This document shows positions 3,936-36,596 of a stretch of 64,000 nt of DNA, piece by piece. The DNA lies in assembly GCA_973895155.1 (NCBI GenBank), contig OZ316891.1, forward strand, positions 24,427,899 through 24,491,898, written 5' to 3'. The translations under genes and the position numbers were made by a program. Position 1 is the stretch's first letter. Each line of letters begins with the position of its first letter. The notes beneath the pieces are model-generated. The model was not told the DNA's origin. It did not search any database and saw only the letters and a program-made list of their open reading frames with translations. Source of the stretch: Marsupella aquatica. Taxonomy: Eukaryota; Plantae; Marchantiophyta.

Positions 3936-3990
3936 GAGGTACACAACTTCATCAGTTATCAGTGACTTTCATCAGTCACTGATATCAATC
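3936..3990 (+). repeat. MULE-1 left terminal inverted repeat (short, degenerate, ATCAGT-rich)
   Basis: Starts GAG directly after the 9-bp TSD; core TCATCAGTTATCAGTGA shared with the termini at 25160, 41350 and 44565. Confidence 0.85.
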
Positions 3991-4339: not shown

Positions 4340-5147
4340 CTAGGCTGCGTCTCCATCTTCCATCCTCTCTACAGGGTAATTGTCTGGCAGACAAGGTCCA
4401 CAACAATCTTTTGCCGCATTGATGTCTATAAGTGCAGGGTCAAAGTTCAGTACGCCGCCTCCAGAAATACGCTCCATGTAGATAATGATATATACACCAC
4501 AATTGTAATCATCCCCTTGACCTGGAATGTTATCTCGGTAAATGCGTGGCCATTCTAAAGGACATAACAAGGTACGACCCCGCAAGATGGAGAGGTCCGA
4601 AAGAAACTGAGCTACTTTGAACACTTCTGTGCCATCCTGTGCTTTGGGCACAAGCGGATCAAGTAAATGCAGTTGCCGCAAGGCAGTATCAACCACAACT
4701 AGTACCCAGTGTTTTGGCCGGTAGACGGGGATTAAAACGTACTCGTGCTCCCACATTTGAATGCCCCGCCAATATGCCAACGCTGCGTTGAAGTTATATT
4801 TCGGAGATGTCATCACTTGGTAAAAATGTGTTGGCAATAACATGGCCTTGGGTTTATGAAGGGTTTGTGCTCTTCGTTCCAGTAAAGCAATGTAAGCATT
4901 GATGACGTTGCAAGTGATCCATTTTTTGGCCTCAAGCATTTTAAATGTGCCCTCGTCAAGTGCACGTCCTCGATTGTCACTATGACCTCTTTTTGGTCCG
5001 CCTTGGGGTCCAATGCCTTCTATACTATCGCCAAAAATTTGGATGGTTGCTGTTGTGCGGGCACTCCTTTGTTTGCAAGCCCCACCTCTTTCACTCCTGC
5101 CCGGGGAGTCAGCCCCTCATTCACTGGTTGCTCAGGTCTCTCCTGAG
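4340..5147 (-). pseudogene. Ulp1/peptidase C48 SUMO protease domain (frameshifted), MULE-1 cargo
   Basis: WITCNVINAY, IPVYRPKHWVLVVVD, LLDP and QGDDYNCG (His-Asp-Gln-Cys set); split over ORFs 4813-5013 and 4340-4939; paralog at 25776-26576. Confidence 0.9.
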
Positions 5148-5175
5148 CTGCAATGAAGGTAAATTCATTCAAACA

Positions 5176-5558
5176 TTACTCTTCGGAACTGGAGCTTGAT
5201 AATCTTATACTTACATGGTGAGTTTGGAGACTGTCACTTCCTACCGAGCTACTCTCATCCGATTGAGCTTCTTTTGCCCTATCATCGACAAATTTGAGAG
5301 TTTTCCTTTTTCTCTCTTGTACACAGCGAGGCACTATTTCTTCATGATAGGTATCAGCAGCGTAGCACGGAAGGGTTAACTTCTGCGGCGAGAAATATGC
5401 CAAAGCTTCCTCCCACGCGAGCTTGACAAGCCGTCTGTCCTGGCTGTCCCATTCCGCTGTAGCTGACTCAATAGTCCTGTCGGGAACTGCTACTAAGTTA
5501 TACTTAAATTCAATCAAATAATGTATTGCGCCCAAAATAGACGTAAACAAGAAGGTAT
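5176..5558 (-). CDS. Conserved exon of unknown function between the MTase-like and Ulp1 regions
   Basis: Strong similarity to ORF 26604-26948 (FKYNLVA.PDRT.ESAT.EWD.QDRRLVKLAWEEALA). AG acceptor at 5560-5559 is phase-compatible with the GT donor at 6732. Confidence 0.65.
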
Positions 5559-5586
5559 CTGTCGGGGAAGGTAGTCGACATGGATC

Positions 5587-6511
5587 GACGGATCTCGGAG
5601 AGGCCAGCCGAGATCACTCTTCCTGAGACGGATCTCGTAGAGGCCAGCCGAGATGACTATTCCTGAGATGGATCTCAGAGAGGCCAACCGAGATTGACTA
5701 TTCCTGAGACAGATCTTGGAGACGCCAGCCGAGATGACTCTTCGGTACACGGATCTCGGAGAGGCTAGCCGAGATGACTCTTCGGTACACGGATCTTGGA
5801 GAGGCCAGCTGAGATCACTCTTCCTGAGACAGATCTTGTAGAGGCCAGCCGAGATGACTATTCCTGAGACGGATCTCAGAGAGGCCAACCGAGATTGACT
5901 ATTCCTGAGACAGATCTTGGAGACGCCAGCCGAGATGACTCTTCGGTACACGGATCTCGGAGAGGCTAGCCAAGATGACTGTTCCTGAGACGGATCTCAA
6001 AGAGGCCACCCGAGATTGACTCTTCCTAAGACGGATCTTGGAGAGGCCAGCCAAGATCACTCTTCCTGAGACGGATCTTGGAGAGGCCAACCGAGATGAC
6101 TATTCCTGAGACGGATCTCAGAGAGGCCAGCCGAGATGACTATTCCTGAGACGGATCTCAGAGAGGCCAGCCGAGATTGACTCTTCCTAAGACGGATCTT
6201 GGAGAGGCCAGCCGAGATCACTCTTCCTGAGATGGATCTCGGAGAGGCCAACCGAGATGACTATTCCAGAGACGGATCTCAGAGAGGCCAGCCGAGATTG
6301 ACTCTTCCTGCAACGGATCTTGGATAGGCCAGCCAAGATCACTCTTCCTGAGACGGATCTTGGAGAGGCCAGCCGAGATGACTATTCCTGAGATGGATCT
6401 CAGAGAGGCCAGCCGAGATTAACTCTTCCTGAGACGGATCTTGGAGAGGCCAGCCGAGATCACTCTTCCTCAGACGGATCTTGGAGAGGCCCGCCAAGAT
6501 GACTCTTCCTG
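5587..6511. repeat. 40-bp tandem satellite (~23 units) with higher-order structure, in a MULE-1 intron
   Basis: Unit GACGGATCTCGGAGAGGCCAGCCGAGATGACTATTCCTGA, period 40-41 bp. Confidence 0.95.
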
Positions 6512-6732
6512 AGTTGCATGTAGAGGAATGAATCTTGGCAAGGTCCGCCAACATGCATCTCAAGTTAGGACTTGCCCTCGCTTGTAGAGGAGGCCAGACA
6601 CTATGAATGTCAGCGAGGTCAGCCGACATGCATACATATCGGCGAGGCCGCTGACTTGTATCCCTCTATTGTCAACCATTGCGACGAGCAAGCAAATATG
6701 AAATGAACAACGTCAAACGCCAGAAAACTTAC

Positions 6733-9700
6733 ATGTCGTTGGGAGTACTGCCGGCTTTTTCTTCTTGCGCTTTTCTGGATTGGCTTTTGAACGGACCACC
6801 TCTTCCTCCTCCGGGGAGATCACTCCAACCAGTTGTGCTAGTTGGTCTTGCGCACAAGTTCCGAAGTGAGGATAGGATTCAGTCCCAAACACCATCCGCC
6901 CGCAATTTTCACCCGCCTTGAATATTGCCCCAAACTGTGCGTTGAAAGTGAGGATAGTTGCCCCAGGGTGTGTTGTATATTCGATGATACATTGGAGCGT
7001 TGCTGGCGACAATGTGCCCGCAAAAGGATCGTTAACCTGATTCTTCTTGGATGTATAGTTCATTAGCCCATTCCTACTCTTCATATCGAGCTTTGCACTA
7101 ATTGGTGCCACATCGTCCTTTGGGCATATCTCCACAGCAGATTGAAACCCCCACAGGTCTAGCTTGAGATATTCGCTCTGGATCGGCCAAACATATTCAG
7201 AGGTCAGACTTCCTCAGTTTAGGATAGTAAGTCATTGGAATAAAAAATAAATGAAGAAGTAGGTAATTGATGGGACTTACTCGCTTCCCAGTCCTACCAT
7301 CGTAGGTGGGTGTGTCGTTCCAGATAAAGAAGCTTTCTTTCAACCCCCAGTTGGTATTCTCGTAAACTAATGCATCATAAATGCAAGTTGAGTGCCAAAG
7401 CGAACCACTGTGCACGATGGCAAACAGTCCTTTGGAATCAAGGACATCTCGAGCAAACTCCTGAACCTGGTTCAAGTCGTCCTCCCGGAACGAATTCCAC
7501 AACGGGGTGGACTTACCCTCGACCATACGTGTGTCTGTTCCCATATGTATCATAATTAAATCTGCACCAGTCTTCACTCGCTTCCCCCCTTTTCTCCAGG
7601 CATTTTGACGCAAACCTTCCCGCAATAGCTTTCTGCACCATGAGATCAATTTACTAACTACAGGGGGTTCGGTACCTTCTTTAGCCGCATCAAAAAAAGT
7701 TGTAAATAGATTTGGAGACCACCTAAAATACATGTCTGCTCTGGGAAGACATGGTATTGGCATAAGGACGCCTTACTCCTTCCAACTCTATGTTATCCTC
7801 TTCTCCAAGGGCCTCTTCATCCTCCTCATTTTCCAATGTGGGGTCAGGTTGGATGGTTGTGGGCGGAACCTCTCCAGTGCCGGGCGGGGGAGGCGACTCA
7901 GTGGGGGAAGGAAGAGGAGGAAATTCCTCGTCACGTGCTTTGCTTGGGCTCCCTTTGGGAGCTCTGGGTCGCCTAGTTTGCTTTCTTTTTAAGGCCTTTT
8001 CCTTTTGCCGTGACAGTAATGGTGGCCGGTAAGGCACAAGAGAGATATCAGACAAGCGCCCTTTGTCTCCGGATTGTCCTTTGTCCTCATCCTCTCGCTC
8101 CTCTTCCTCTTGCTCACCCACATCATCCTCACCTTGCTGCTCGTCAGTCAATTCATCTTGTACTTCAGGAGCCTCATGCGGAGGCAAGTCAAATTCTTGC
8201 AGTGGAGCCTCGTCTGGACCCAACTCAACTATTGGTTGTTTATCCTTGTGCCCTGGACCCTGCAAAACCCCTGGACCGTCCTCAACTGCTGCCTTTGTAG
8301 CCGGCTCTACACCCTTGCTCTTGATAGAATCAGGTTCCGTTTGGATCTCTGCATGACTTGCATAGGATGCAAATTGATGAGCTTCATGATGGCAACTGTA
8401 TCTCGGCGAGCCTCGCCAAGATCGGGTTCATTATATGCAAGCAACTTATTACTCAACTAATACTTCATCTCGGCGAGCCTCACCGACATCTGGACTGGAC
8501 CAGACACTTAATCTCGGCGAGCCTCGCCAACCCAGCCAATGTTTTTTCCAATGCAAGCCACCACCTGATTCGAAAGGAATTGAGTAATACCTGATGGGAT
8601 CTTTGTTGGAGTGCTTATAGAATCTGACTGACTGGCGGATTGTTCCTTGTCGACCTTCTTCTCGCCTCCTTCCTTTCGGGCCTTTTTCCCATCATAGGCT
8701 GGGTCCATTGGGATTATGGCCTCCAACGCTATTGCCTGGGGCATAGAGTCCATCAATTGTCGCAGCTTGGATATATCGTAGTAATTTGTAGGCTCCTGTT
8801 GGTCCTTGAGCTTCATTGCACACTCCTTCTCAGCGTCATCGATAAAAGTATTCTAGTCACGGTATTCCATATACCATGGGCAGTTTTGACGTTCCCAATC
8901 GCAGACTACTCTGCCATTAGGAATTTGGCCATCACATGGATACATGCTAAGGCTCCCTTTCGGCTCCATCCAAGATGTGAGTGCCCATGGCAGCTCTTTC
9001 AATACGGATGCATTCATGTTCTCCTGATTGATTAGAAATCTTGTCACGCACCTCTTTGTTCGCTTTTTCCACAATTCTTTTAACAAGACCGTGGCCTTTC
9101 CGTCAATCCAAATTTCCCCGCCTAGTTTCAGTGATTTCTCTTGCACATAAGCTCGATAAAGCCTTCTGTATAGCTCTGCAAATTCCTCCTCTGTCCCAGA
9201 AAACTCATGGTACATCTGTCTTTGGTAGGCCTTTGCAGCAAAATCGGACAAAATCACACAACCAACGTGGTCAATGTAACACCACATTGACCAGACCGCT
9301 AACCAGGATCTAATTGCAGCATCACCATTGCTATGTGGATGGTGATACATACTCTTCTCCTCCTTCGTTCCAAAATGAGCTTTCAATAGCTTTACTCTGC
9401 ACTCTGCAGTTACCCAAGCCCCAGCAAACAAGCGGACCCTGTCCAAGCCAACCTGTACATTCATCACACCCTGCTTGGCATCCTTTGACAACTTGTGATA
9501 CAGCTGCCGACATACCGGCATGAACTGGTCTCCATTGGCCGGATTCACGCAGGCCGCAAGCTTGGGGAACTTGTTGTCCCAGGCCTTGCATGCAACAATA
9601 ATCATTGCCTCCGTCTCCTCCTCAGTTCTCTTCACACTCCACGGGTGCCCACGAGCTGCGTCTTGTGCCATCTCCTTGGAGATATTGATTCGTCCCGCTT

Positions 9701-10718
9701 CAATGTTTGACCAAGACATGATGTACACAACGGCTTCTTTTGTCATATTCTTCGAGTACCAAGTCTTCCCATGTCCTCGATTTCGGGCCTTCATGAAAGC
9801 CTCCATTGTCTCCTTTGACATGAGCGAACTGTACTCCTCCAATGGAGTGTTCAATAGCTTTGCAACCCGATCAGCGTCATTAAACCAGGACATCTTTACG
9901 ACAGTCGCACTTATCCTGAAAATGACAAACAGTACTCATAGCGGCAATTTCAGAGAGGCTCTCCAAGATGGCACACAAGGTTTACACAAACGGGTACTAA
10001 TCACATTTTGCAAAAAGATGCGCATTGCTTGCTCAACCTTCTTGAATCCGTCCTTCCCAACGTTCAAAAGAGAGAATCTGACGCACGGATGGTATTGCAA
10101 TTGATCCGGATACTCAGAAGCAACTGCGGACCAGGCTGTGTATCTGTGGTTTCCATCAAAAACCCAAAACATCTTGTCCTTAAGGACTTTGAACTCCTCT
10201 GATGCATCGCACTCTTGCTCAAACTGTTCATTGAGTTGAGTCCATAGAGGGTCCCAAAATGGCTTGAAGTCTGTCACTGTCTGCGTTTCTCCAATTTCAT
10301 TGAACTCAGTAATGTGGAACTCGTTGAGCTTCACAACATAGCCGCTCTCTTTGAATCCTTTTTTTAATTTTGCAACCGACTCATCCTGAAGATTCCTCAC
10401 TGCCTCCATTGGCATGAGCCGGCACAAGGGGATCTGGGGTGGATCCTTACTAAACTTTGTCTCATACTTGGAGACGATAGACTCCCAGGCTCCCTTCTCA
10501 GCAATATCAGCCAATTATGCCGCTCCAATAGGCTCAAATGATATCTGCTTTGGCTCAAACTTCCTCCTAGAGTCGACTGACTCCATAAGTGGACCACCCT
10601 GTGAGCGCGTCAGTTGAGACGTGACTGGCGAAGGAGACTTGGATCATGGTTTCTTACTCCGCTGAGAAATTTGGCTGTCGGCAGGTCCAGCTCCAGTCGA
10701 GTCTTTCCTCTTTGGCAT
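6733..10718 (-). pseudogene. Multi-exon MULE-1 cargo gene: ParB-like N-terminal domain, helical region, acidic/Pro linker, degenerate beta-class N4/N6 DNA methyltransferase-like domain
   Basis: FWVFDGNHRYTAW (ParB-type DGxHR). ADLIMIHMGT..FARDVLDSKGLFAIV..FFIWN and LQCIIEYTTHPGATILTFNAQFGAIFKAGENCGRMVFGTE match the layout of N6_N4_Mtase motifs. In-frame stops near 10645 and 10516; collinear paralog in MULE-2. Confidence 0.7.
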
Positions 10719-11309
10719 TTAGATTACATGAGAAATGAAAGAGTTATTACTCGGCAATAGCTCGACCTATAAACCTGACAAGATCTTAGCGAGCCCCGCC
10801 GAGAGAGCCAGTTTTCAAGGATACGCGGGGTCCAGCCTATCACACATTTGATTCATCTACAAATGGATTTTACATATCAAGAAAAAGGGGGAGCCAAGAG
10901 AAAAACCTGAGAGAATCACCAACGTTCACGGCAAATCACTGTCGCAAATGCTCACAAGAAAATGTTGCCTAAACGCTCACGAAGAAGCTACCACACGCTC
11001 ACTGCCTCAAAACACCAACGCAATCCAGTAGACACAATAACAGGGTTGCACAGGAGAGTTTACCGTGAGTGGGACGACTGAAGAAGAGCAGGAACAACGC
11101 GGATGTGAGCGCGGAGAAGTGAGAGATTGCACAAGACCAATATGCAAAGATTGAGGAAGAGCACAGATTAGAGCGCGAACGAGTAAGGGACGCAAAAGAG
11201 TGAGGTAGAGTGAGAAGGTCCGGGGATTAGTGATAAAGACGAGCGCCAAACCTAAGGTGTCACACCGTGGAAGAGTGACGAGGAAGGAACGACATCCACT
11301 TCAAGGAAT

Positions 11310-11420
11310 AACGTACCGCACATACTGCACAACACTAAAGTACGCAATAGATACGGGAGATCCTAACTATATTTCAATACGTACATGTTAACGGCCCAAA
11401 CAAGAAAGTACACAATGCTA
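11310..11420 (-). promoter_or_regulatory. GTAC-rich upstream module of the ParB/MTase-like gene
   Basis: ACGTACCGCAC..GATACGGGA.ATCC.AACTATA..GTTAACGG.CCAAACAAGAAAGTAC also found at 49600-49710 and, inverted, at 57450-57630. Confidence 0.55.
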
Positions 11421-11729
11421 ACGCGAGTACTGACCACCACTAGTACGAGAGAGTTTAGGGTACATTTAGGGTACAATTAGGGACTTTGGCCTACAACTCA
11501 AATGAGTCCGAATGTAGGAGACCCTTGTTGTCATTTCATTCCGAGGCCTACTAAGACGTGTCAACATCTCGGTGCGTCAGCTCAAAGAGGAAATGGTTGC
11601 CCACATGCATTATCATTTGGGTGGCTTAACTAAAAGAGGAAATTGGGGTTAAGAGAAGGGGGAAGAGCACAAGTCAACAAGATCAAGGAGGGTTTGTTGG
11701 AGGAGACTTAATAAAGGCGGCCAATTATG

Positions 11730-11750
11730 TTTAGGGTTTAGGGTTTAGGG
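11730..11750 (+). repeat. Short interstitial plant telomeric repeat / telo-box (TTTAGGG)x3
   Basis: TTTAGGGTTTAGGGTTTAGGG; similar runs near 24600, 24901, 25136, 44341, 49758 and 57129. Confidence 0.85.
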
Positions 11751-11835
11751 TAAAATATGAGAAGTAGAAAAAAGTCCAACACTCTAGCGAACTTCACGGT
11801 AGAAAAGTACGCTTCTTGGGTCAAAAAGGTCGCCA

Positions 11836-12430
11836 GCCTCTCGGAGACCCTCTCTGAGATGGAGTCGTGGGCCAGATGACACCACTTATGGACCCTGTTA
11901 ACAGTTTCAAAGGGTTAGCTACAACATACACTGTCTCTCAGAGACCCTCTCAGAGATGAAATTAAGGGTATTCTATTTCAAAGGAAGGACTCAAAATGGT
12001 TCTATCCAACATCCGATGTCAGAGACCCTCTCTGAGATGGAGTGGTGTGGCCCGAACGGCCAGACGACAAAAATTGTCAATCGCGTCTTGGGTGGAAAGG
12101 GAAGCGAGATTGCAACCCAATCGCTCGGAGACCCTCTCTGAGATGGAGCCGTGTGCCCCAAGTGGCCAGAGAGCAGTTCTCCCAGATCGCATATTGGGTC
12201 AGAAAGGTCGCCAAATGAGACCCAGCCTCTCGGAGACCCTCTCTAAGATGGAGTCGTGGGCGTAATTTGGCCAGATGACACCACTTGTGGACCCTGTTAA
12301 TAGTTTCAAAGGGTTAGCTACAACATACACTGTGTCTCTTAGAGACCCTCTCCGAGATGAAATTAAGGGTATTCCGTTTCAAATGAAGGACCCAAATTGG
12401 TTCTATCCCACATTCGATGTCAGACCCTCG
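11836..12430. repeat. Internal duplication (~190-bp copies at about 11836-12030 and 12225-12420) plus palindromic motif copies
   Basis: Near-identical GCCTCTCGGAGACCCTCTCT.AGATGGAGTCGTGGGC..GACCCTGTTAA.AGTTTCAAAGGGTTAGCTACAACATACAC blocks. Confidence 0.85.
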
Positions 12431-12639
12431 CCAAAATACAAGGATGAACCCAAAAGTGCATGCAAAAACTGACCGTACAGTACTTTTCAATGTTTTTACA
12501 ATGTAATTTTGTATGGATCGCGTGTCCGTACAAATCTACCATCTCAGAGAGGCTCGCCGAGTACAAATGCTGTTGCCCAAATGACCCGAGTCCATCTCAG
12601 AGACCCCCACCGAGAATAATTTAGGGTGGAAACTAAATG

Positions 12640-13447
12640 TCAAAGACCCTCGCCGAGTAGGATTCTAGGTAAAAGTAAATGACACTCAGCAACCGAGGAA
12701 GTCCCTAATCCACCACAGAGAGGCTCGCCAGATAGCGCGACCGCATGCCAGAGACCCTCGCCGAGTAGGATTCTAGATAAAAGTCTATGAGAATCCATCT
12801 CAGAATCTCGGAGACCCCCGCCGAGAATGACTTGGGATGAAAAGTAAATGACACTCAACGACCAAGGAAGTCCCTAATCCACCACAAAGAGGCTCGCCAG
12901 ATAGCGCCACCGCATGTCAGACACCCTCGCCGTGTAGGATTCTAGGTAAAAGTCTATGAGAATCCATCTTCGAATCTCGGAGACCCCCCCCCGAGAATGA
13001 CTTGGGATGAAAAGTAAATGACACTCAACGACCAAGGAAGTCCCTAATCCACCACAAAGAGGCTTGCCAGATAGCGCGACCGCATGTCAGACACCCTCGC
13101 CGAGTAGGATTCTAGATAAAAGTCTATGAGAATCCATCTCAGAATCTCGGAGACCCCCGCCAAGAATGACTTGGGATGAAAAGTAAATGACACTCAACGA
13201 CCAAGGAAGTCCCTAATCCACCACAAAGAGGCTCGCCAGATAGCGCGACCGCATGTCAGACACCCTCGCCGAGTAGGATTCTAGGTAAAAGTCTATGAGA
13301 ATCCATCTTAGAATCTCGGAGACCCCCGCCGAGAATGACTTGGGATGAAAAGTAAATGACACTCAACAACCAAGGAAGTCCCTAATCCACCACAAAGAGG
13401 CTCGCCAGATAGCGCGACCGCATGTCAGAGACCCTCGCCGAGTAGGA
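12640..13447. repeat. 169-bp tandem array (4 full units plus partials) upstream of the MULE-1 transposase
   Basis: GA(G/C)ACCCTCGCCG recurs at 12751, 12920, 13090, 13259 and 13428. Confidence 0.95.
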
Positions 13448-14379
13448 AGTCGAAAGGCTATTTATTCATCCTTCAAGTCAGGCATATTTGCAAAGGGGAT
13501 TATAAGCCACACGACGGAAGAAGAAGAAATGTTTTAGGCAAGGCCGGACGGAATCTTGGAGAATATACTACATCCCTAGAGTTTGCATGTACCTTCTTGG
13601 CGGCTGCTGGCAAATATGTACCTTGTACATGTGTAGAATCTGTACCTTCTTGGCGGCCGCTAGCAAATAGGTACCTTCTTTGTGGTACAATTGTTATATG
13701 TACGCTCCGGATTCTACAATCGTTATATGGTATGCACGTTGTCCAGAACGGTATTCTTGGCGTAAAGTATGGGTACTTTAACGTCTGATGTACCGCCCAA
13801 GTTCTAAGCCTGAAAGTGCGGTATTATTGGCATAAAGTGGTACGAAGATTTTAACGTCTGATGTATAAAGCCGAAGGCCTGGGGACTAACATTCCCAGTG
13901 TGGATTTGGGACACATGGCTTCTCTTGTGATAATCCGATCAGTAACCGGGGATGTTGTTGTTTTTCATCAGATTGAGGGAGACAGTGTTCGAGTCACTAA
14001 GGAGCATGAAGTAGCAAGCCAATTTGGTTTGAAGGTAGGGGATTTCATGATTTACGAGGAGAGAGAAGATGGGCTATCCACTTCTGCTGAATCCAAAGGC
14101 GATGAAGATGAGCGAGAGTGGTATCTGAAATGTGGCGTGTCCTATACTATCTGCAAAAAGAAAGCAAGTTCATGCAATGTTAGTGAGGGTCTTGGAGATT
14201 TTGTGCACTCCCCACAGATTGATGAACCGGGTGAATTATGGAACAATACACCGTGTCAGAAATCGTCCCAATTTTGGGAGGACATTCACCGAGTTGGTAG
14301 ACCCCACTCAAATTCGTCGCCAGTGTGGCAGGATGTTGGAGAGGCAGATGAGCTAGTGAAGGAGACACCTCGACCCAAC

Positions 14380-14960
14380 GCAATCAATCTCAGAGGGGGT
14401 CTTCGACATGGTGAACCTTCTCGATTGAGTACACCTCGGTCAAATTCATTCCATATGTGGGAAGATGTTGGAGATGTGGATACACCAGTGAAGGAGAAAC
14501 GTCGATCAAGTGCATTCAATCTCAGAGGGGGTCTTCGAGATGGTGAACCTCCTCGGACAAGTACACCTGGGTCCAATTCATTCCAAATGTGGGAGGATCT
14601 TGGAGATGGTGATACACCAGTGAAAGAGAAACCTCGATCAAGTGCATTTAATGTCAGAGGGGGTCTTCAAGATGGTGAACCTCCTCGGACAAGTACACCT
14701 GGGTCCAATTCATTCCAAATGTGGGAGGATCTTGGAGATGGTGATACACCAGTGAAAGAGAAACCTCGATCAAGTGCATTTAATGTCAAAGGGGGTCTTC
14801 GAGATGGTGAACCTCCTCGGACAAGTGCACCTGGGTCCAATTCATTCCAAATGTGGGAGGATCTTGGAGATGGTGATACACCAGTGAAAGAGAAACCTTG
14901 ATCAAGTGCATTTAATGTCAGAGGGGGTCTTCAAGATGGTGAACCTTCTCGGACGAATAC
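14380..14960 (+). repeat. 120-bp (40-aa) coding tandem repeat in the transposase N-terminus
   Basis: Repeated LRDGEPPRTSTPGSNSFQMWEDLGDGDTPVKEKPRSSAFNV in ORF 13861-14901. Confidence 0.9.
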
Positions 14961-17678
14961 ACCCGAGTCTACATCATCCCAATTTTGGGAGGATCGAGGA
15001 GCTGCTTATACTCCACCAAAGGAGACACCTCGATCAAAGGCATTCCTTCTCAGAGAGGGTCTTCGAGAAGGCAATTCAGTATGAAAGGATGAGTTCCTTG
15101 TCAGTGTTGTTCATGCCATGCTACACGGGAAAGGGACCTCTCGATGTGTACAAGCTGCTCGTAAGATTTTGAGCACAAAATTGCCGGAGAGAGTTCAACG
15201 ATTACCAGAAGTGTATGATGGAGACCATGTTTTTGAGTTGCCACCTTTTACAGGTCCATACTCGAAGGGGTGTTTCTTTTTGGGCATGGAGCGAAAGAAT
15301 GATTGTTACATGTGGAGCAGGTTGATTGAGACAGGAGCAAATATCGGCCCAAAGCTAAACAACAACAGTCACTCTTACAAGATCCAAACTGTGAAGTGTT
15401 TGGGTTCTCTACGTTGTATGCATAGGGATTGTGAGAATTTTGAAGAGCGTAAAGAGCACAATTCTGCAAAGTGGACCCGAGATTGAGCAGGCACAAATGA
15501 GCTGCCTTTCCCTGTTGGATGCGACGTTCCCCCATCAAGTGTAATTTGTAGCTTCTATAGGAGGCCTCCTAGGTGTATAGCTGGATGCCCAAGTGAGATG
15601 TACTACATCACTCCAACCAAGGACGACCTTAATTACTGTCACAAGTCTCGTGTTGCCATGCATGTTGGAAATCACACCCATCCCGCAATGTTCACGCACA
15701 ACAAAGATCAACGATCACTTGTGCGTAATCTCGTGGAGGAGGACTGAAGAGGAGTCCTACTGCACGGCCGTCTGTGATCAAGGTCAAAGCAGTACAAAAA
15801 CTTAAAGATATTTTTGAGGACTCAGTGGCTGAGATGGTCACCACTGAGGAGGCAAACAACCTTGATGAAATGTTGGCCATTCTGGGCGACGAATCTGTTT
15901 TCCGCTCGATGATCAGGAGCATCAAGAGATACTCTCATGTGTCGTCTGATGTAAGCATGATACTAGAGATGCGGAAGCAGATTGCATTTCCTTTTATCCA
16001 AAGTGTTTTGTTCCAAGCCCAGAACGTGGGAACAAATGAGCGGCCACACATTTTTAAAATGAGTACAGAAGGTCCCGGCTCAGGAGTGGACCTTGTTCGA
16101 AGAATGCAGCCAAGAGGGGATCTAGAGCATTCTTGGGTGATGTCTGATGTCATGCACCGCATACTTGACAATAGATGGTGCACTATGTCTGCACACGTAT
16201 ATGACCATTTCTATCGAGGCTTATGCACAATCTTTGTCTGTGAGCTAGTTTCAGAAGACAGCAAGTCATTGCAAACTGCATGGAAGGTCATGAGGAGGGT
16301 ATGTGAAGAACATGGGCTGAAGAATGTGCAATTTTGTGGATTTATGGCTGATAATGCTGCTGCTGGGTGGAATGCGATCCGCAATGAATTTTGGGATGGA
16401 AAGGTAAATTCCCATAGAGAGAGGTCTGATGCATTTCACTAGGCCCAATCAGTACAGAGAATGCAGAAGCACATTGTCCCAAGTAAGAGATTCGAGCATA
16501 AAGAATTGTTGGATTCACTTCGGCACGCCGGTAATATAGTTCTTGCCTATCGAGTTTTTGAGAAGCTGAAAACGTGGTGGAATGAGGGCAATGCGCTACC
16601 AGGAAAAGCAAAGGAGCTCACCACATGGATGTCTTGGTGGATTGTTCGGTTTTCTCAATGGGGAAACTTTTTGAGACTCGTAAGTGTCTTAACACTTTCC
16701 CTCCCTATGCATGATATCCGTCAACACATCGGATCTCGGCGAAGCTCTCCGAGATACGCTCGGATACACCTATTTTGTCTGTTGCCTAGACATAACAAAT
16801 GACCAAAATTGATATGTTTTCTGGAACAATATTGCAGGAGATGGACAGAGAAAAGGCAACACTCATGCCTAACCACAGCGGGGCAGAGTCGGTACACGCA
16901 TCTATGCGTAAATCCTCATCTAGTACAAAGGTTGGGTTAGTACAATCTTGTACCCTGGATGCATCTCGTGCGTTGAGCCAGAATGGAGCTTTGAAGAACT
17001 ACAAACTCAGTGGGAGGAAAGGACGGGGACCGAGCTTGTTTGAACTTTGACTTCGAGATGCTACTGCCGTTGGGAATGTAGAATCTTTCTTTCCAAAATT
17101 GAACACCGCTGTAACTCAACCACACTTGCGTGAGTTCTCATCCGCGGACCCACTTAGCAGAGATGTAGAAACGGTTCCGATGAAACGCGGGAAGGCCGCT
17201 GCTGGCCATCATGTTGTAGTAGAAGATTCCCACCGGCCTAACATTGTTTTGGTAACCAGACCAAAGAAGAGGAAGTTCAGGGGGATTGCAAATAGGGACG
17301 CAAACTTGAAAAGCCAGGATGCTGAAGTTGTGGATCTGTCGTCCGATGACTCTCGTGGCTCGGGCAAACCAGATGTTGTCATTGTGGAACCCCAAAGGAC
17401 AAGGTCAACCCCACGTCCAGAGCCCGTGAGAAGACGTGTTCAGGAAAGTGATTTGGTTCCAGGCATGTTCTTTTTGGCTCGCATCTCAACGATTAGTAAG
17501 AGTCCCGGTTGTCGAGGTGCATTCAAAGGCAAGGAACGGGGAGTATGTGCTCAATTTATCAGAGAGGCAGGACTAAAAGTAAGCGGATTAGGTGTTGTCG
17601 GTATCTGTTGGCTGGCTGGGAGTAAATTTAACGAACCAGGTGTTCCATATCCGTATTGGTTTTGCCCAAATAACCAAT

Positions 17679-17806
17679 CCCAACACATATCTGTTTTTGT
17701 TATCTCCTGCACAATTGTCAAGTTGTAGCTTCAAAACTCTTGGAAGAGGCTTGAAGGTAGTAGACGCATCCAATGAGTGTGACTTCGCTGCAAAAATTTA
17801 AGAACC
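17679..17806 (-). other. 128-bp foreign fragment, probably from an unrelated DDE transposase
   Basis: Absent from the MULE-2 transposase. Minus strand encodes KPLPRVLKLQLDNCAGDNKNRYVL, a DNCxGxNKN motif of the kind seen in Sola/DUF7869-like DDE proteins. Confidence 0.6.
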
Positions 17807-17976
17807 TGTTGGACCATGACAAGATGGAAAAAGATCTCGTGTATACTCCCAAGGAGAAGAATAAGTATATGCGGCTTGAAGGCCGTTGCCCTGAGGGAGT
17901 TATCCTAACTGAGTTAGGTAGAACTCTAGTTAGGCAAGTAGAACTATGGTAAGTAGGTTTAACCTGGGTTACAACA
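17807..17976 (-). repeat. Copia 3' LTR (170 bp); PPT at 17977-17988
   Basis: TGTTGGACC..GTTACAACA, differing from 23516-23686 by 2 substitutions and 1 indel; CCCAAGGGGGAG purine tract on the minus strand. Confidence 0.95.
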
Positions 17977-18521
17977 CTCCCCCTTGGGTATGACATTTTC
18001 CAGGGAAAAAGTTGTACCCATTCTAAACCTGCTTTGTTTCTACTGTATTCTTCTGCTTTCTCCTATTTTATTTTCTCATCATGATATAGTTAGGGAATAG
18101 GATGTGACCTCCCTAAAACCTCCCCATCAATGGGAGGAAAGAGTATCACCATCCATGTTCCAAAAACAGTTGTAGACTAATCAGAATCCTAAAAAGAATT
18201 ATGTCCTAAATAAACAGGGGTACTAAGGGTGTGTATGCCGTAACATGTGTGTATAGAGACGGTATCGTGAGTAAAGTCGTGTCATTTTAGTGGTGAGTAG
18301 TCGTATGGAAACCGCATCGTAAGCCCTAAAGTTAGTCGTGGTGGGCCGCATTCGCTCGAGGCTTGTGGAGATGGTGGGCCATACTTCGGATGGTCGTGAG
18401 ATGGTGGGTCGCACAGCGTTTGGTCAAGCCCGTGAGCGCGGCTTTTTCGGACGTTGCGTGCATGTTGCTACGTAGACTCTCCAGGTGATGTGCTCCCCCT
18501 GGAACGTGGGGTCGATGAATA

Positions 18522-21500
18522 TCAGGGCTGCAACAAAACTTTTAGGCTGCGCATTCCAATGGAGAAGGTTAATTTCTGATGCATAGCAGGTGGTAGGGCC
18601 TTGGTGAGTAGATCAGCTGAGTTCTCTGCACTCGAAATCCATCGCACATCGATTTGGTGTCCATTTTGTTCATGTGCAAAGAAAAATTTCGGTGCAATGT
18701 GCTTTGTTTTGTCGCCTTTGATGAAACCTGCTGCTATCTGTTCGACACAAGGCCGATTGTCTTCAAAGATGACAGTAGGCGCAGTTAGTGTATTCATTCC
18801 TGTGCATTCGGCAATATGGTTGATTACATTCCTTAACCAAATGCACTCACGACTCGCTTCATACAGTGCTATGATTTCAGAATGGTTGGATGATGTCGTC
18901 GTTAATGTCTGCTTTGTGCTCTTCCAAGAGATTGCAGTGTTTCCTGTGAGAAAGATGTATCCCGTTTGTGATTTTGCGTCTGCAGGGTCTGACAAATATC
19001 TTGCATCGGCAAACCCGGTTAGTGTGATGCGAGATTGTTGGGGGTAAAAGAGGCCCAGATCAGATGTACCGTGGAGGTATTTGAAGATCCATTTGATTCC
19101 ATTCCAATGCCGAATAGTCGGTTGTGAACTGTGCCTGGCAAGTAGATTGACTGCGAAGGCTATGTCTGGGCGGGTTTGGTTGGCAACAAACATGAGCGCC
19201 CCTATGGCTGACAGGTAAGGTTTCTCTGAACCAAGAAGTGGTTCTATTTCCTCTCTTTTGCGAAAGATATCCTTTTCTTTGTCCAACGACCGTAGGTCCA
19301 TTGGGGATCTTACTGCTTTGCTTGTCGACATGTGGAATTGTTGGAGCATTTTCTTGACGTACGTGGTCTGGTGGAGTAGTATTCCACTCGGGAGATGCTC
19401 AAACTGTAGGCCAAGGCAAAAAGTAGTTTGCCCCATGTCTCGCATTTCGAAAACACGTTTGAGTATGTGTATCGTTTCTAGCATAATCTTAGCGGTTCCA
19501 AACAGATTAAGATCGTCAACATATATAGCGACGATTATGAGTTCACTGCCCTCGCGTTTGATAAACACGCATGGAGCTATCTCGCTGTTCTTGAAACCCA
19601 TAGCTAGCATTTCATCCTTGAATTTGTAGTACCAGGTCCGGCCACTTTGCTTGAGGCCATACAGAGAACGTAAAACTTGTATAGCAAATTTTGTCTTAGC
19701 AGGAAGTGCGCCCGTGGCGGGGTGTGCAGATTGCTGAATGAATGCAATTGCTTTTGAAGTCTTCTGTAGTATGGCATGATCAGTATGCCTGAATGAGTAG
19801 TCGTTGTTCTGGCTGACGTTTTCTGTGTTATTCTCCCCCTGACTATGATAATGTACTCTAGATATCAATTCTGGTGGGGCTTCCATGTGTATCGTTTTAT
19901 CTAACGTGCCGTAGAGATAAGCTGTGACTATATCCATTTGATGCATGGATAATTGATGGTGGAGTGCGAACGCAGTTAAATACCGGTACGTAATGACGTC
20001 CATGACTGGAGAATAGGTGAGGTCATAGTCTTTGCCGGGAATTTGTGTAAATCCCCTGGCCACTAATTGGGCCTTGTATCTCACGATTGTCCCTTTGGAA
20101 TCTCGTTTCTTTACGAACACCCACTTATATCCCGTAAGGTGTGTCTGTGGAGGGGCCCGAGTGATTGGTCCGAAGACCTGTCGGGAGATCAGTGAGTCTA
20201 GCTCAGATTTGATGGCTCTCTCCCAATGTTCCCAATCTTCTTGTTTTTGGGCTTCTGCAATCGTTCTGGGATCGGGTAAGTCCGCTATGATGTCTTTTGA
20301 GATTTGGAAAGCGAATCTATCGTCCATCTTTAAAGTAAATCGATCCCAGATGTGTCCGGTTTTATTATAATGTATGGAGATTTCCTCTCCTTGTTCTAAT
20401 GATGGTGGCTGGAGTATGGCATTATTGACTGCAGGAATGGTGGGTTTTCTTTGGCGCGGGCGTTTGTCAGTGGAACCGAGTGGCCTGCCTCGTTTCTGCC
20501 TTGGGACTACCTCGGCTGATGGCTGTCCATCGGTCTCAATTCTCGAAGGGGTATTGGCGGCTGGTACGTGCGATCGGGTGACCTGGGCTACATCCGCGAA
20601 GGAATCCGGGAGGTCTCCAAGTACCTTGGTAAGGTGGAGGATCCTTTGTACCTCGCGATCCGCTAGTGGGGTCCGAGGGTCATTCCAAAATTTGGAGTCA
20701 ATCTGCCATTTTAATTGTTGGTTGTTCGTATTCTCGAGGTTTTGTGTGGTTCCCAGTTTAGGGAATACCGACTCATAGAAATGGCAATCTGCCATTTGTG
20801 CCTTATAAAGATCTGTCGTGGTCGGGTCGAGATATCGTATGATGGACGGTGAGTCCAAACCAACATAAACGCCTTTCTGGCGTTGTGGACCAAGTTTGGT
20901 TCGTTTGGGACCCATGATCGGAACGAGGACTTCGCAGCCAAAGGTGCGAAAGTGTGATAAGTTGGGATTGGATCCGAAGGCTAAACTATGAGGAGATGCA
21001 TCGTTAAATGCGGAGGGGCGATATTGTAGTAGAGTTGCTGCGTGAAGGACTGCGTGTCCCCAGGCTGTTTGTGGAAGGTTGGTCTGCATGAGGAGTGGCC
21101 TCGCTACGGTTTGTATACGCTTAATCAATGATTCGGCCATCCCGTTTTGAAAGTGAACGTAGGGGACTGGGTACTCTAAGTCAATTCCAGCAGTCATGCA
21201 AAAATCTTCGAATGTTTTTGACGTAAATTCACCAGCGTTATCTACTCGAAGAGTTCTAATGGGATGCTCCGGGAACTGTGTCTTAAGTTTAAGTATATGG
21301 GCAAGGAGTCTGGAGAATACTAAATTTCGGGTGGAAAGGAGTGAAATTTGAGACCATTTCGAGGAGGCATCTACTATGGCCAGAAAGAATCGGAAGGGGC
21401 CACTGGGGGGGTCCACCGGTCCACATACGTCTGCATGAATTCTTTCTAGGAACTTGGGTATCCTTTTGTCAGTCTTCGTTGGGGATGGGCGAAGGACTAG

Positions 21501-22241
21501 CTTCCCTTGCGAGCAAGGTAAGCATGGTTCTTTCAATGAGGCTGGGTGCACTGAGGCGGGGATGCCTCAAGAATCTTTGAGGATCCTCTGGAACATTCGT
21601 AGGCCTGGGTGGCCGAGACGTCGATGCCATAGTTCTGTGGTGCTAATCAGTTGGGATATTACGTGGTAATTGTCTATTTTTGTTATATAAAAGCCTAATG
21701 GGAACGCCTTTAATGTTTCTTTGATCGTAGTTCCCGATGCAGTGGTCTCTAGTATATTCAACACCTCTTGGCCACTAATAGTGTTTGTCTGGATGTGGAA
21801 TCCGTTCTCTCGGATATCCTTGAAACTTAGTAAGTTTCTTGTGGCTCGGGGGGCATAGATTGCAGAGTGTATGTGTATGGTTGTTTTCTGTGGTAAGATT
21901 ACCATCGCAGGGCCATTTCCCTCTTCTAATTGATGGTTGCCTAGGATAGTCGTGACACTTCTATCGGATGGATCAATGTATTTGAAATGTTTGCGCTCCC
22001 TGAGGATGGAGTGGGAAGTCCCACTGTCGACTATGCAACAAGTAGGATCATCTAATGGATTATGTGCATCTGAAATAGGAGCTAAGTGTATTTCTGGTCT
22101 TATCTCAGTGGAATCAAGAAATGCCCCATGTGATTCTCGTGCGCCTTCGCCGATACTGGCTTTATAGAGCGCGACCAGATGTGCAGGTGCTCTACATTGT
22201 TTCTGGACATGACCTTTCGTTCCACATCTGTAACAGGTCAT
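18522..22241 (-). pseudogene. Copia pol region: Zn knuckle, protease, integrase, RT, RNase H (one in-frame TGA at 21567-21569)
   Basis: CYRCGTKGHVQKQC, IVDSGTSH, LWHRRLGHP, IHADVCGP, RVDNAGEF, SLYGLKQSGR, IYVDDL, ENSADLLTKAL. Confidence 0.95.
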
Positions 22242-23092
22242 GGCTTCTTCTGGTTTCTGTGGGTGGCTGCGAGGATTTGATCTGACTTGCTGTGGCTATT
22301 TCCAGAGGTATTGCTATTGTAGGTGTTTCGTGAACGGCCGCGGCCCCTGCCTGATGCGCGAAATTGGCCTCGACCGTCACTCCTAAAATCGCCCCATCGG
22401 CCTCTAGAGGTATTTCTACCCCGTCCGTTGCCACGCCCTCTGTAGGAACTTCCGGGGTCAGTGCGTGGATTATTAAAATGGGTCTCCGTGTGGGGTTGGG
22501 GTGGTAAGGTACCCGGAGGCCTCTGCTTGGTGTTTTCCAGCAAAAGTATCTGGTGCTTTTCGGCAAGCAGCATATGGGCTATGAGCTCCGAGTATTTGGT
22601 AAAGTTCATGTTTCGGTATTGTGTTGAAATGACCATGTTCGTAGAATGGAATGTAGAAAGAGTTTTTTCGATCTGTTCCTGATCATTCACCGGTTTTTGA
22701 CAGACTGCGAGTTGGGAGGTAATGCGGAACAGCTCACTATTGTAATCTGCGATGGTTTTGTGATCTTGCACCCTCAGATTGATCCAATCGTGTAGGGCCG
22801 CCGGGAGGAAGATTGTTCGGGTATGGTCAAATCTAGAAAGGAGTGCTTCCCACAATCGGCGTGGGTTGAGCTCGTTTAGATATTGAAGCTTTAGTGGTTC
22901 AGTCAAATGTCGCCTGATTAAGATCAGCGCTTGAGCTCACTCCTGTAAAGTAGATCCTGTGTCGGAGGTGATCGTGTCTGCAATGTCTTTGGATGTCAAG
23001 TGTGCCTCTATGTCCAATTGCCAAGAAAGATAGTTGGCGCCATCAATACTTAATGGCTGGAAATATAACTTTTCCATGGCTGCCGGAGGCAT
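22238..23092 (-). pseudogene. Copia gag (premature stop near 22938; out of frame with the Zn knuckle)
   Basis: FQPLSIDGANYLSWQLDIEAHL and LWEALLSRFDH..W.NLRVQDHKTIADYNSELFRI..LLAEKH, typical of Bianca-type gag. Confidence 0.85.
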
Positions 23093-23500
23093 GATTACTA
23101 TGATTATATGTAGTATGCGTTTCAGTGGCGGAAATACAATTTGTCTAGATTGATGAATTCACAAATTGATGACATGAATAAATGGAATGTGAAGAGCTTT
23201 CGTAATTGGAGGTGTTAGCTGGAGTGGTCGATTGTAATTTGCGTTGGTTGCTGCACTCCAGCCTCTCGCTTTGTCTGATTGTCCGATCACGTTGTGCACG
23301 GCTGCTTGCACGCTCGCCTTGCCTCTGTTCGTAGTCTTGAAAACTTCACGCGGCGAGTGTATTGCGTGCGCGTTGGACGTTCATGAGACGCAACGCTTCG
23401 TGCAAAACCTTCACGCGGTGACTAAAGATCGGACAAGTGTGAGCGTGGTTCGTAGAAGGGCGGAGGAAAAAAAATTAAAGGAAAAAAAACCAGAGCACTA

Positions 23501-23515
23501 CTCGTGCTGATAACG
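23501..23515 (-). promoter_or_regulatory. Primer binding site (half-tRNA-Met type)
   Basis: CGTTATCAGCACGAG immediately inside the 5' LTR. Confidence 0.75.
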
Positions 23516-23686
23516 TGTTGGACCATGACAAGATGGAAAAAAGATCTCGTGTATACTCCCAAGGAGAAGAATAAGTACATGCGGCTTGAAGGCCGTTGCC
23601 CTGAGGCAGTTATCCTAACTGAGTTAGGTAGAACTCTAGTTAGGCAAGTAGAACTATGGTAAGTAGGTTTAACCTGGGTTACAACA
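23516..23686 (-). repeat. Copia 5' LTR (171 bp)
   Basis: Direct repeat of 17807-17976. Confidence 0.95.
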
Positions 23687-24299
23687 TTTGCCATTTATTA
23701 CCGGTGTTTTACCACCACTGCCTTCAAAGTTTCCTGTCTCTCGTGGAACTAATCTTACAGAAGAAGAGGTCCTGTTCTTGCACAACAATGGAGTGGACGT
23801 CATTTTTGGTGAAGATGTTATGAATGAATTGGTGAGTGCTGGCGACATCATAATGGATTTGAACACATACCCAGAGCGGATAGATCCTACAATCCCTAAT
23901 GAGCGTGGTACTCGACGCAATGGCCAGGCAAGGCGAAGGAGGTCAGACACCTCCAAGTACGCTGCCACACGTATCCATAATTCTAAGACCGAGGCAATTG
24001 TGTGCACATCAATGAGGAGAATCAAAACAGGGAATGCTACAGGCGTGAGGCTCATGGTGAACAACACTTGCAGGGGCCAAACTTCAATACATTGCGTACA
24101 AATCTGTGTCTTCCCAAGTTGCTCCTGCAAGGATTTCATGTACAGGGAGTCTATGGGTAGAGCCTACTTCCCGTGCAAGCACTTGTACTGGTGCTTTGCA
24201 AACATCTCAAAAGGAATATCGACACGGATCAATGTGTTAACCAACCAATCTTGACTCTAATTGAGGTCATCAACCTTGTATCAAATGCGGGTATTGTCT

Positions 24300-25159: not shown

Positions 25160-25775
25160 GGGGTCGTGTACTTCATCAGTTATCAGTGAGTTTCATCAGT
25201 GACTGATATCAGTCCAACACCGGAACTCAGCGAATCAGCTGAGATGAATTCTTCTGGGGCACAACCCAATCCACAAACCAATCGCAGTCCGCGCCATTGT
25301 CGGCGCCTCTTTGAGGTTGGATCGGGTACTTTACTTCGACCATTTCTTATGTCGGCTGCCTCTCTGACATTAAAGGAGAATATAAAGTTTCAATCTTGGC
25401 GGTCTCTCTGAGATTTCCTCGAAGTTCAGTTGAATCTCAGCGAGCCCCGCCGAGATTCAACTGAAATTTGAGGAAAAAAAACTTCTCACACAGGGTCTTC
25501 GATATATCATGGGGTGTCGCTACTAAATCTCAAAAAGGATCCATACAACACATCGTACAACAGAGTCCATACAACACGTCCCTTTCAAAGACTCATCTCA
25601 AAGACCCTCGCCGACTTATCCAGGAGAGCTCGGCATGACATTGAAGAACAACACGGGGTCCAGCGTAGAAAGTAACCTTTGGAGGAAATTTTTATTTTAC
25701 TTCGTATACAACATGTTGCTCTGTTGTGAAATATTCACAAATTGAATTCACAAAGGCAATCCATCGATCCTCTAT

Positions 25776-26576
25776 CTACAAACTGATCGTCTGGCAGATT
25801 AGGTCTACAATAATCTGCTGTCGTATAAGCAGTACATGTTTAGGGTCAATCGCCAATACAAAGCCTCTAGAAAGACGCTCCATGTACATTATGACATATA
25901 CTCCACAATTGTAACTATCGGGTTGGGCTGGAATATTGTCGCGGACGATGCATTGCCATTGTAATGGCGATAAGTGGGGACAACTGCGCAAGCGGGACAG
26001 GTCATGGAGAAACCGACCGACATTCACCAAATCGTCGCATTCCGATGCTTCGCCTCCAATGGGATCGAGCAAATGTAGTTGCTGCAAAGTAAAATCGACC
26101 ACAGCTAGTACCCAATGTTTTGGCCTGTGGATGGGGATTAGAATGAGGTCGAATAAAAAGACGTCAATGCCCTTCACAAATGCCAACACTGCGTTGAAGC
26201 TGTACGCAGGATGCGTCAAGACATCGTAAAAATGTGTGGGCAAAAGCATGCATTTGGGTTTTGCAATGACCTCTGCTCTACGCTCCAATAGAGGAATGTA
26301 AGCATTGATGATGTCACAAGTGAGCCATTTTTTTGCCCTCAAGCATTTGAAATCTTTTCTCTTCAATTTTAAGTCGTCGAGGCTGACTAGGACTTCATCT
26401 TGGTCCCTGTTGGAGTCCAATGCTTCTTTGACTATGGTTGCAAGTATGGCGGGTTGATGTCGTTGCGCAGGCACCCCCTGATTCGGTCGTTGGTGCACAG
26501 GCACCCCCTAATTGACTCCTTGCTGGGCAGTCACTACCTCGTCGACTGGTTGTTGTGGCTCAATTTGCTTCTGAGC
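25776..26576 (-). CDS. Ulp1/peptidase C48 SUMO protease domain, MULE-2 cargo, catalytic residues intact
   Basis: WLTCDIINAYI, IPIHRPKHWVLAVVD, LLDP, QPDSYNCGVYV in an open frame. Confidence 0.9.
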
Positions 26577-26603
26577 TGCAATGAAGGTAAATTCACCCAA
26601 AAA

Positions 26604-26948
26604 TTACTCTTCGGAATTGGAGCTTGACAAACTTATGCTTGCATGGTGAGTTTGGAGACTATCACTATCACTTCCTACCGAGCTACTCTCATCCGATTCA
26701 GCCTCTTCTGCCCTATCATCGACAAATTTGAGAGTCTTCCTTGTTCTCTCTTTCACAAAATGAGCAACTCTTTCTTCATGATACGTATCAGCGTAGCACG
26801 GTAGGCTTGACTTCTCCGGAGAGAATAATGCCAAAGCTTCCTCCCAAGCGAGCTTCACAAGTCGTCTGTCCTGTGTGTCCCATTCCTCGGTTGCCGACTC
26901 GGTGGTCCTGTCGGGAATTGCTACTAAGTTATACTTAAATCGAATCAT
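26604..26948 (-). CDS. Conserved exon of unknown function (paralog of 5176-5558)
   Basis: High amino-acid similarity to ORF 5176-5550. Confidence 0.65.
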   Translation of the reverse strand: MIRFKYNLVAIPDRTTESATEEWDTQDRRLVKLAWEEALALFSPEKSSLPCYADTYHEERVAHFVKERTRKTLKFVDDRAEEAESDESSSVGSDSDSLQTHHASISLSSSNSEE

Positions 26949-27149
26949 GTATTGCGCCGGAATAGATGGATCACAAGAACGAATTTGTGAGGCAAGTGAG
27001 CCGATGTGGACACCCTAGATAATCCATTGAGTCGCCTTTCGAGATAGATCTCAGAGAGGCTAGCCAAGATGTATTTTTGTCCCTCCAGACGCATCTAAGG
27101 CCCTACGTGGACTTGCCAGTAGAAGTTGACGTGGCCAGGCCACCCGGGA

Positions 27150-36448: not shown

Positions 36449-36596
36449 CCACAGTTTCTTACTCCGCTGAGAAGTTCCGCTATCAACAGGTCCAGCGACA
36501 GAACCAGCCGAGTCTTTCCTCTTCACCATTGTGATCTAAGATTACATGAGAAAACATTCAAGAATTACTTCACAATAACCATACATCTCGGCGAGC

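Follow-up and report, generated by a model that had tools for sequence, protein, structure and literature searches.

A cargo gene of giant Mutator-like transposons in the liverwort Marsupella aquatica carries a degenerate beta-class methyltransferase fold and may encode a self-targeting regulator

In a 64,000-nt stretch of Marsupella aquatica contig OZ316891.1 (hereafter the window, to which all coordinates refer), an intron-split gene present in two copies is carried as cargo by giant Mutator-like elements (MULEs), and its product appears to join a ParB-like N-terminus to a beta-class amino-methyltransferase (MTase) fold whose catalytic motif is lost. We propose tentatively (with a probability of roughly 0.4) that the gene is an accessory one, belonging to a multi-copy transposon family, and that its product is a non-catalytic regulator acting at the palindromes of its own element, with an anti-silencing role like that of VANC. 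This proposal is made because (i) the cargo gene and a transposase lie inside the boundaries set by terminal inverted repeats (TIRs) and target site duplications (TSDs) in two independent elements, (ii) the MTase fold is kept under a low ratio of nonsynonymous to synonymous substitutions (dN/dS) while motif IV is lost in 41 of 41 rows of the family alignment, (iii) a 23-bp palindrome is confined to the elements, absent from the cargo exons and kept in unrelated repeat units, and (iv) VANC, the red-algal PAG3 and the Ulp1-bearing VANC genes give precedents. In such a mechanism, one spliced product would join the ParB-like, middle and MTase parts, with a SUMO protease spliced on at the C-terminus; the ParB-like N-terminus would act as a dimerisation or nucleotide switch, and the dead MTase fold as a DNA-gripping or base-flipping module. 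The protein would bind the 23-bp palindromes and, once bound, would protect or activate the element and shield it from host silencing.

The gene is MULE cargo, as the element boundaries show. A terminal repeat of ~50 bp occurs four times (at 3936, 25161, 41350 and 44565), and once an inversion at 36596-58247 is undone, two elements appear, one nested in the other: E1 has a 9-bp and E2 a 10-bp TSD. Both have the TIRs and a TSD in the 9-11 bp range by which MULEs are recognised. Indeed, the left TIR of E1 (3936-3990, plus strand) comes after the 9-bp TSD and that of the nested E2 (25161-25215, plus strand) after the 10-bp TSD, and the right TIRs, now inverted, lie at 41350-41405 (E1) and 44565-44620 (E2), both on the plus strand and each next to its 9-bp or 10-bp TSD in the original orientation. 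An earlier inspection of the letters by themselves (the sequence-only reading) had placed the gene in a plant DNA transposon, which these boundaries bear out. Without insertions the elements measure 18.6 kb (E1) and 20.5 kb (E2) and share one layout, with Ulp1, a palindrome array, the cargo gene, a divergent region (the intergenic stretch 10783-13445, which holds 13 palindromes), a MULE-type transposase and two F-box-like open reading frames (ORFs). The transposase gene of E1 (13855-24254, plus strand) is split by a Copia element (17803-23686), and that of E2 (50944-55381, minus strand) is 84-88% identical to it over long matches. Assigning these transposases to the MULE class is a judgement from the TIR/TSD structure together with what we take to be the D..AA..NA, C/D-x-x-H and SWIM-like motifs, spotted by eye; no Pfam MULE family matched either transposase when the exons were scanned separately.

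The cargo gene lies on the minus strand, and its two copies share 69-79% identity by blastn. Copy 1 is broken (6716-10718; exons ~10718-10020, 9915-8591, 8348-7281 and 7177-6733/6716) and encodes, in order, the ParB-like region, a middle domain, an acidic linker and the degenerate MTase. Copy 2 (27633-31802; exons 31802-31158, 31028-29713, 29385-28190 and 28094-27633) has its first codons (36454-36526, minus strand) cut off by a 4,651-bp TG..CA insertion (31803-36453); spliced by coordinates, it is open over ~1,230 codons with no internal stop. GT..AG sites common to both copies mark intron 2 (donor 8590 in copy 1, 29712 in copy 2), intron 3 (7280-7178 and 28189-28095) and the acceptor of intron 1, in line with the intron-containing gene described earlier. 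The ParB-MTase fusion described with it is a deduction from these splice sites and from liverwort gene models, which agree: the end of the middle domain and the MTase lie in one protein in 7/7 homologues examined, and none of the database homologues reaches the ParB-like domain.

Copy 1 is broken in five places, with stops at 10646, 10517 and 8855, 2 nt deleted at 7731 and 17 nt lost across the donor of intron 1, and the public sequencing runs listed with the stretch include no RNA run. Both points would suit a functionless captured fragment, passively carried and decaying, an explanation already disfavoured that we consider very improbable. Indeed, contigs of four public runs (two studies, one possibly of the source sample) hold many variants across the whole stretch, most of them open; the stops at 10646 and 10517 are missing from ~80-100% of the depth in all four runs, and the 7731 deletion from most of it in three. 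The lesions of copy 1 are therefore largely copy-specific, since most of the public contig depth is free of those at these three positions. In addition, the pairwise dN/dS between copies 1 and 2 is well under 1 (ParB exon 0.12, middle domain 0.21, linker 0.64, N-terminal MTase exon 0.36, C-terminal MTase exon 0.24) at dS values of 0.65-0.92, the Ulp1 and MULE rows having been dropped because their frames were off, and the family is found in two liverwort genera. The gene is thus under purifying selection, and the values of the two MTase exons agree with the conserved scaffold claimed for it.

The MTase domain (6878-7730, minus strand, split by intron 3) can be assigned to the beta-class N4C/N6A fold on solid grounds, namely profile alignment and a predicted structure. 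The peptides first quoted for it are present, with DLIMIHMGT at the motif IV position (7536-7562), FARDVLDSKG at 7428-7457 and the motif X-I tail IIEYTT...GRMVFGTE at 6878-6988, all on the minus strand, and the copy 2 counterpart NLILIQMGS at 28445-28471. Single exons gave weak but consistent profile matches (PF01555, E 0.092; PRK13699, E 0.0049; PADLOC MTase_II, E 2.8e-4), with M.RsrI as the top PDB sequence match (E 0.038), and the two window sequences alone scored no higher than shuffles with a profile built from 40 phage MTases. Significance was reached because the family alignment was used, the two window sequences alone being insufficient. Word-based homologue searches for longer proteins, a weak approach, returned none for the middle, C-terminal MTase and ParB exons, and full HMMER, run later with the N-terminal MTase exon as query, gave 33 proteins at E <= 0.001, from which P0018 and P0027 were dropped as repeat-driven. 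Twenty of the 33 were looked up, and the ten that are named all come from liverworts (Riccia sorocarpa, Calypogeia fissa); relatives were absent from the metagenome and viral contigs searched. PF01555 was matched by six of the 33, P0015 over positions 2-212 of its 221 and P0019 above the curated cut-off.

Aligned with phage beta-class MTases by hhalign, the 41-row family alignment gave a probability of 97.1% (E 7e-11, 212 columns) and placed GADLIxI(QMG) on D-xxTDPPY, the register that the sequence-only reading had proposed for the DLIMIHMGT-type segment; against phage ParB-MTase fusions, the probability was 92.6% over 199 columns. The family profile scored real MTases at up to 32.5 bits, and none of 1,040 shuffles exceeded 4.0. 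For structure prediction, the modelled sequence was the homologue P0020, the closest database protein covering both halves of the MTase, which in the window are separated by intron 3. Its AlphaFold model (mean predicted local distance difference test, pLDDT, 74.9) matched CcrM in Foldseek at E 2.2e-9 and M.MboIIA with Z 17.0 (root-mean-square deviation 3.3 over 196 residues); the top 11 structure rows are beta-class, followed by METTL3/14-type enzymes at Z 8-11. The degenerate beta-class fold proposed at the outset is thus recovered by alignment and by the P0020 model.

The catalytic motif is lost across the family; the DNA or modified-base binding that the sequence-only reading suggested for such a pseudo-enzyme is putative. 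Motif IV in the form [DSN]PP[YFW] occurs in 0/41 rows, so no relative retaining D/SPPY was found among them; the first position is D in 19/41, the third is P in 24/41 and the fourth is never aromatic. One set of proteins has DPPT, DLPS, DIPT or YLPT and the set of the window HMGT, QMGS or QLGT; copy 1 has HMGT and copy 2 QMGS, the loss of DPPY in both having been recognised from the start, and the variant nearest to DPPY is the DPPT of P0015. For the S-adenosylmethionine (SAM) motif the earlier claim of loss holds in both window copies, which, like P0020, have lost the aspartate and the first glycine, but the loss is specific to a subfamily: D-x-x-x-G-x-G is kept in 7/12 rows spanning the motif, and the D only in 2/12. 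These seven rows, the D-x-P that Riccia proteins retain at motif IV and the DPPT of P0015 could mean that, at least in the liverwort clade that keeps the SAM motif, the domain is still enzymatic, with an unusual active site, and modifies the DNA or RNA of the element; the descriptions of PAG2 as a putative active methylase and of a working 4mC enzyme in liverworts would lend this reading precedent. We nevertheless consider it unlikely, since the aromatic motif IV residue that holds or stacks on the target base in amino-MTases, according to PMC4738411, is found in no row, and the window subfamily has neither proline of motif IV, nor its acidic first residue, nor the first glycine of the SAM motif.

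The ultimately prokaryotic origin proposed for the domain is in line with its prokaryotic kin in hhalign and Foldseek, and the tree does not establish that it descends from a phage ParB-MTase fusion. This tree is a quick one of 54 rows, its midpoint root chosen for drawing only; it unites the plant proteins in a single group (support 100), whose long branch joins between the phage ParB-MTase fusions and other phage MTases, an attachment point that does not identify the donor. Every named match of an Atlas search with P0015 carried PF01555, and the same search with P0004 gave no informative match; tblastn against phages and plasmids returned chance matches only, and an Apilactobacillus match was rejected because the motif is missing from it. 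Separately, a scan of prokaryotic genomes confirmed one stretch as a relative of the C-terminal MTase exon, with 0 loci returned; this stretch may be truly prokaryotic or may reflect contamination by plant DNA.

The ParB/Srx superfamily is marked by a G-x-x-R-x-x-A motif. The ParB_N-like region of copy 1 (10060-10433, minus strand) has weak profile matches in register around an insert of ~41 residues and contains the motif WVFDGNHRYTAW at 10131-10166 (minus strand), where the DGNHR context had been reported; copy 2 has DGNRR in place of DGNHR. Both DGNHRYTA (copy 1) and DGNRRYTA (copy 2) fit the superfamily motif and align to the AGHGR/AGHTR of phage ParB. That this domain belongs to ParB/Srx is probable, judging from motif and register: the motif part of the earlier ParB-like assignment stands, and the fold matches are weak and near shuffles (ParB-like phrog_1033, E 0.056 and 0.075 in the two copies; TIGR03187 DGQHR, E 0.071). 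It is improbable that the N-terminus is not ParB-like and that DGNHR arose by convergence in an unrelated fold, which would leave the pseudo-MTase cargo standing. Exon 1 has no Pfam ParB match and no PDB sequence match, as such convergence would predict, and local ParB profile scores were 19.3 and 19.8 versus shuffled maxima of 18.4 and 19.2 in 40 shuffles (P 0.006-0.05). However, independent libraries put ParB-superfamily families among the few matches in the same segment, and the first strand, the helix and G-x-x-R-x-x-A stay in register with phage ParB profiles around the 41-residue insert. In addition, the motif is a conservation peak, because the 40 bases over FWVFDGNH are all that diverged subfamilies in the public runs have in common, and the loose ends after them read H-R-L. 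Note that the fold search with the exon 1 model, which was built on two sequences, is uninformative, and its failure to list ParB is no evidence against it. The middle domain that follows (8620-9915, minus strand, ~430 residues) has at its C-terminus a WE..NCPW/FY motif as in liverwort homologues and shares 40% identity with P0004 over 297 residues; it matched no Pfam family.

Behind the MTase, a helical exon (5505-5214) and an Ulp1/Peptidase_C48 exon lie at 4340-5505 in E1 (minus strand; Pfam E 1.6e-13), with their counterparts in copy 2 at 25776-26940 (minus strand; E 2.3e-22). Splicing of the MTase to Ulp1 is possible because the phase-1 donors that close the MTase exon (6732 in copy 1, 27661 in copy 2) fit the phase-1 acceptors fronting a conserved exon that leads to Ulp1 and that, in copy 1, has no methionine of its own. 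The product may thus carry the ParB-like, middle, pseudo-MTase and Ulp1 parts in one chain, the candidate intron 4 being 6732-5493.

The putative target is a 10-3-10 palindrome of 23 bp with the arm ATCTCGGCGA. At <=5 mismatches it has 143 sites, versus 0 in each of three shuffles; all 143 lie within E1 and E2 (39.0 kb) and none in the other 25.0 kb. It is confined to non-coding parts of the elements, with no site in the 12.4 kb of cargo exons, five inside transposase gene spans and an occurrence in intron 2 of both cargo gene copies. The palindrome is retained within unrelated repeat units of 37, 40, 92 and 158 bp: tandem 40-bp units, each with one palindrome, form an array at 5574-6630 within candidate intron 4, 92-bp units form one at 27033-27610 downstream of copy 2, and 37-bp units one at 46586-48250. 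Such sites could also be bound by the MULE transposase, with the cargo protein as a transposase partner or chromatin cofactor that has no recognition of its own, an alternative that we hold to be plausible, if somewhat unlikely. Clusters of palindromes also occur upstream of the transposase genes, within them and near the element ends, and no DNA-recognition domain was matched in the cargo protein by Pfam, as that alternative would have it; the densest gene-adjoining arrays of E1 and E2, however, immediately follow the cargo gene, with 23 and 10 sites, and the ParB-like PAG3 of red algae is likewise described as flanked by inverted-repeat arrays across transposon superfamilies. A variant closer to bacterial partition would be a rebuilt ParB/parS system of epigenetic self-defence, in which a nucleotide-gated ParB-like clamp would load at the palindromes and spread over the 20-kb element, carrying the dead MTase as a base reader or shield and the SUMO protease; we regard it as quite unlikely.

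Several observations weigh against a self-targeting regulator. The palindromes may be transposase sites, because transposases themselves can be sequence-specific activators, AtMu1 transposase being described as switching on its cognate copies in this way (10.64898/2026.08.24.746577). Because of tandem duplication the number of palindromes is inflated, and the window itself is the source of the motif. Scans of family libraries found no helix-turn-helix or other known DNA-recognition domain in the middle region, the ParB-fold profile scores lie near those of shuffles with an exon 1 model of pLDDT 45, and the SAM motif kept in part of the family leaves catalysis open for that part. Finally, the observed/expected CpG ratio is 0.56-1.01 in the elements versus 0.25-0.42 in the flanking CACTA and other sequence, a contrast that gives weak support because the nested Copia is also high (0.83, with 0.68 for the TG..CA insert) and age is a confounder.

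Other features of the window concern its rearrangements and neighbours. The inverted block (36596-58247, 21.7 kb) cuts a CACTA transposase in two, between MYPME and RYMK, and undoing it rejoins this transposase and gives E2 the layout of E1. On the left, the break lies within the three central bases of a family palindrome and is joined to the CACTA transposase by 4-bp microhomology, and in public contigs deletions fuse the palindrome at 9947-9971 with that at 12541; such palindromes may be hotspots of breakage or recombination. The TG..CA insertion at 31803-36453 (4,651 bp, 5-bp TSD, no internal long direct repeat) has one plus-strand ORF of 1,037 codons with a coiled coil and no clear family, and it may be a very long solo long terminal repeat (LTR) or a non-autonomous element. 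The Copia element in the E1 transposase gene (17803-23686) has 174-bp LTRs that are 97.7% identical, which indicates a young insertion. Two intronless F-box-like ORFs per element (42199-44250 and 48498-50713; Pfam F-box E 0.015 for one) are further cargo besides Ulp1, and a similar ORF lies at 61098-61673. A BRCT-domain ORF and an NSD-type PHD-finger ORF (61808-63960) adjoin the CACTA transposase (59417-60463) and are likely chromatin-reader cargo of the host CACTA element. A shared promoter-like module (11303-11605, 49519-49765 and 57309-57772) lies ahead of both copies of the cargo gene and of one F-box-like ORF, and telomere-type TTTAGGG runs occur near ~11730, ~25140 and ~44350.

Sequence-specific self-regulation by transposons has been demonstrated only in a few angiosperm systems such as VANC, and the cargo family would add a second candidate, one that can be interpreted structurally, that comes from early-diverging land plants and that is made of prokaryotic parts. 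The idea is directly testable because a candidate target, the 23-bp palindrome, is ready-made. The family also offers what appears to be a clean natural case of a pseudo-methyltransferase, in which the active site would have decayed stepwise (DPPY to DPPT to DxPx to xMGT, with the SAM motif last) under purifying selection, and by analogy it ties the red-algal PAG cassette to land plants. A literature search, which fell short of most subscription papers, returned no account of this land-plant family, the fused layout or the lost active site; note that the supplements of the Bostrychia study (Table 6, curated PAG elements) may include related sequences.

The cargo protein resembles M.MboIIA, CcrM, M.RsrI and M.PvuII (PF01555) in its circularly permuted Rossmann fold, with motif IV ahead of motif I. 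Phage ParB-MTase fusions (cd16402-type, 12/32 sampled phage ParB proteins) would have both of its domains in common with it; the cargo family differs in that DPPY is absent from 41/41 rows and in that ~700 residues and three introns separate the two domains. Known eukaryotic systems allow the following comparisons. MpDN4MT1 of Marchantia (10.1101/2021.02.12.428880) and the bdelloid N4CMT (PMC8885841; Z 15.1 against the P0020 model) are active eukaryotic beta-class enzymes, and the cargo protein is like MpDN4MT1a/b and N4CMT in being a eukaryotic beta-class amino-MTase of apparently bacterial origin; by its description, MpDN4MT1 is an active host enzyme with SPPY, whereas ours is transposon cargo without the motif. 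Dead MTase domains are known in DIRS1 retrotransposons and METTL14 (PMC4738411), where, as seems to be the case here, an amino-MTase fold is retained by a transposon or as a scaffold, but that of DIRS1 is a Group-2, PCIF1-derived part of a retrotransposon polyprotein, and ours is circularly permuted, of the beta class and carried by a DNA transposon.

Eukaryotic DNA transposons with ParB-like and PF01555 domains among their cargo are already known from red algae: Plavaka elements (Bostrychia), and also Mutator, Zisupton and Fanzor elements, carry PAG2 (PF01555 plus SET) and PAG3 (ParB-like plus 2OG oxygenase), and PAG3 adjoins arrays of inverted repeats, for which self-binding was proposed (10.1101/2025.02.11.637652). 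Compared by description, the Marsupella elements share with these 17-19 kb elements a PF01555-type and, probably, a ParB-like domain as cargo and, with PAG3, tandem inverted-repeat arrays beside the gene concerned. They differ in that a single gene model here holds the domains that red algae have in separate genes, together with a middle domain and probably Ulp1, in that no cargo exon matched SET or 2OG in Pfam, and in that motif IV is lost here, whereas PAG2 is described as a putative methylase and not as degenerate. Among eudicot MULEs, VANDAL with VANC and KAONASHI with KIU, the Ulp1-bearing VANC genes (PMC13317346), likewise combine a MULE, an accessory gene and an Ulp1 domain, and VANC binds short motifs that lie in introns, in intergenic DNA and in tandem repeats (PMC5735166), the places in which the candidate targets pile up here. 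In contrast to VANC, whose motifs are 8-9 bp and whose anti-silencing is demonstrated, our elements have a 23-bp palindrome, short TIRs and a putative role in anti-silencing, and neither DUF1985 nor DUF287 matched any cargo exon of either copy at E <= 1 (Pfam). Altogether, alignment, modelling and analogy suggest that the cargo protein belongs structurally to the beta class but is neither an active enzyme nor a VANC, and that it may work in the manner of PAG3- or VANC-type cargo.

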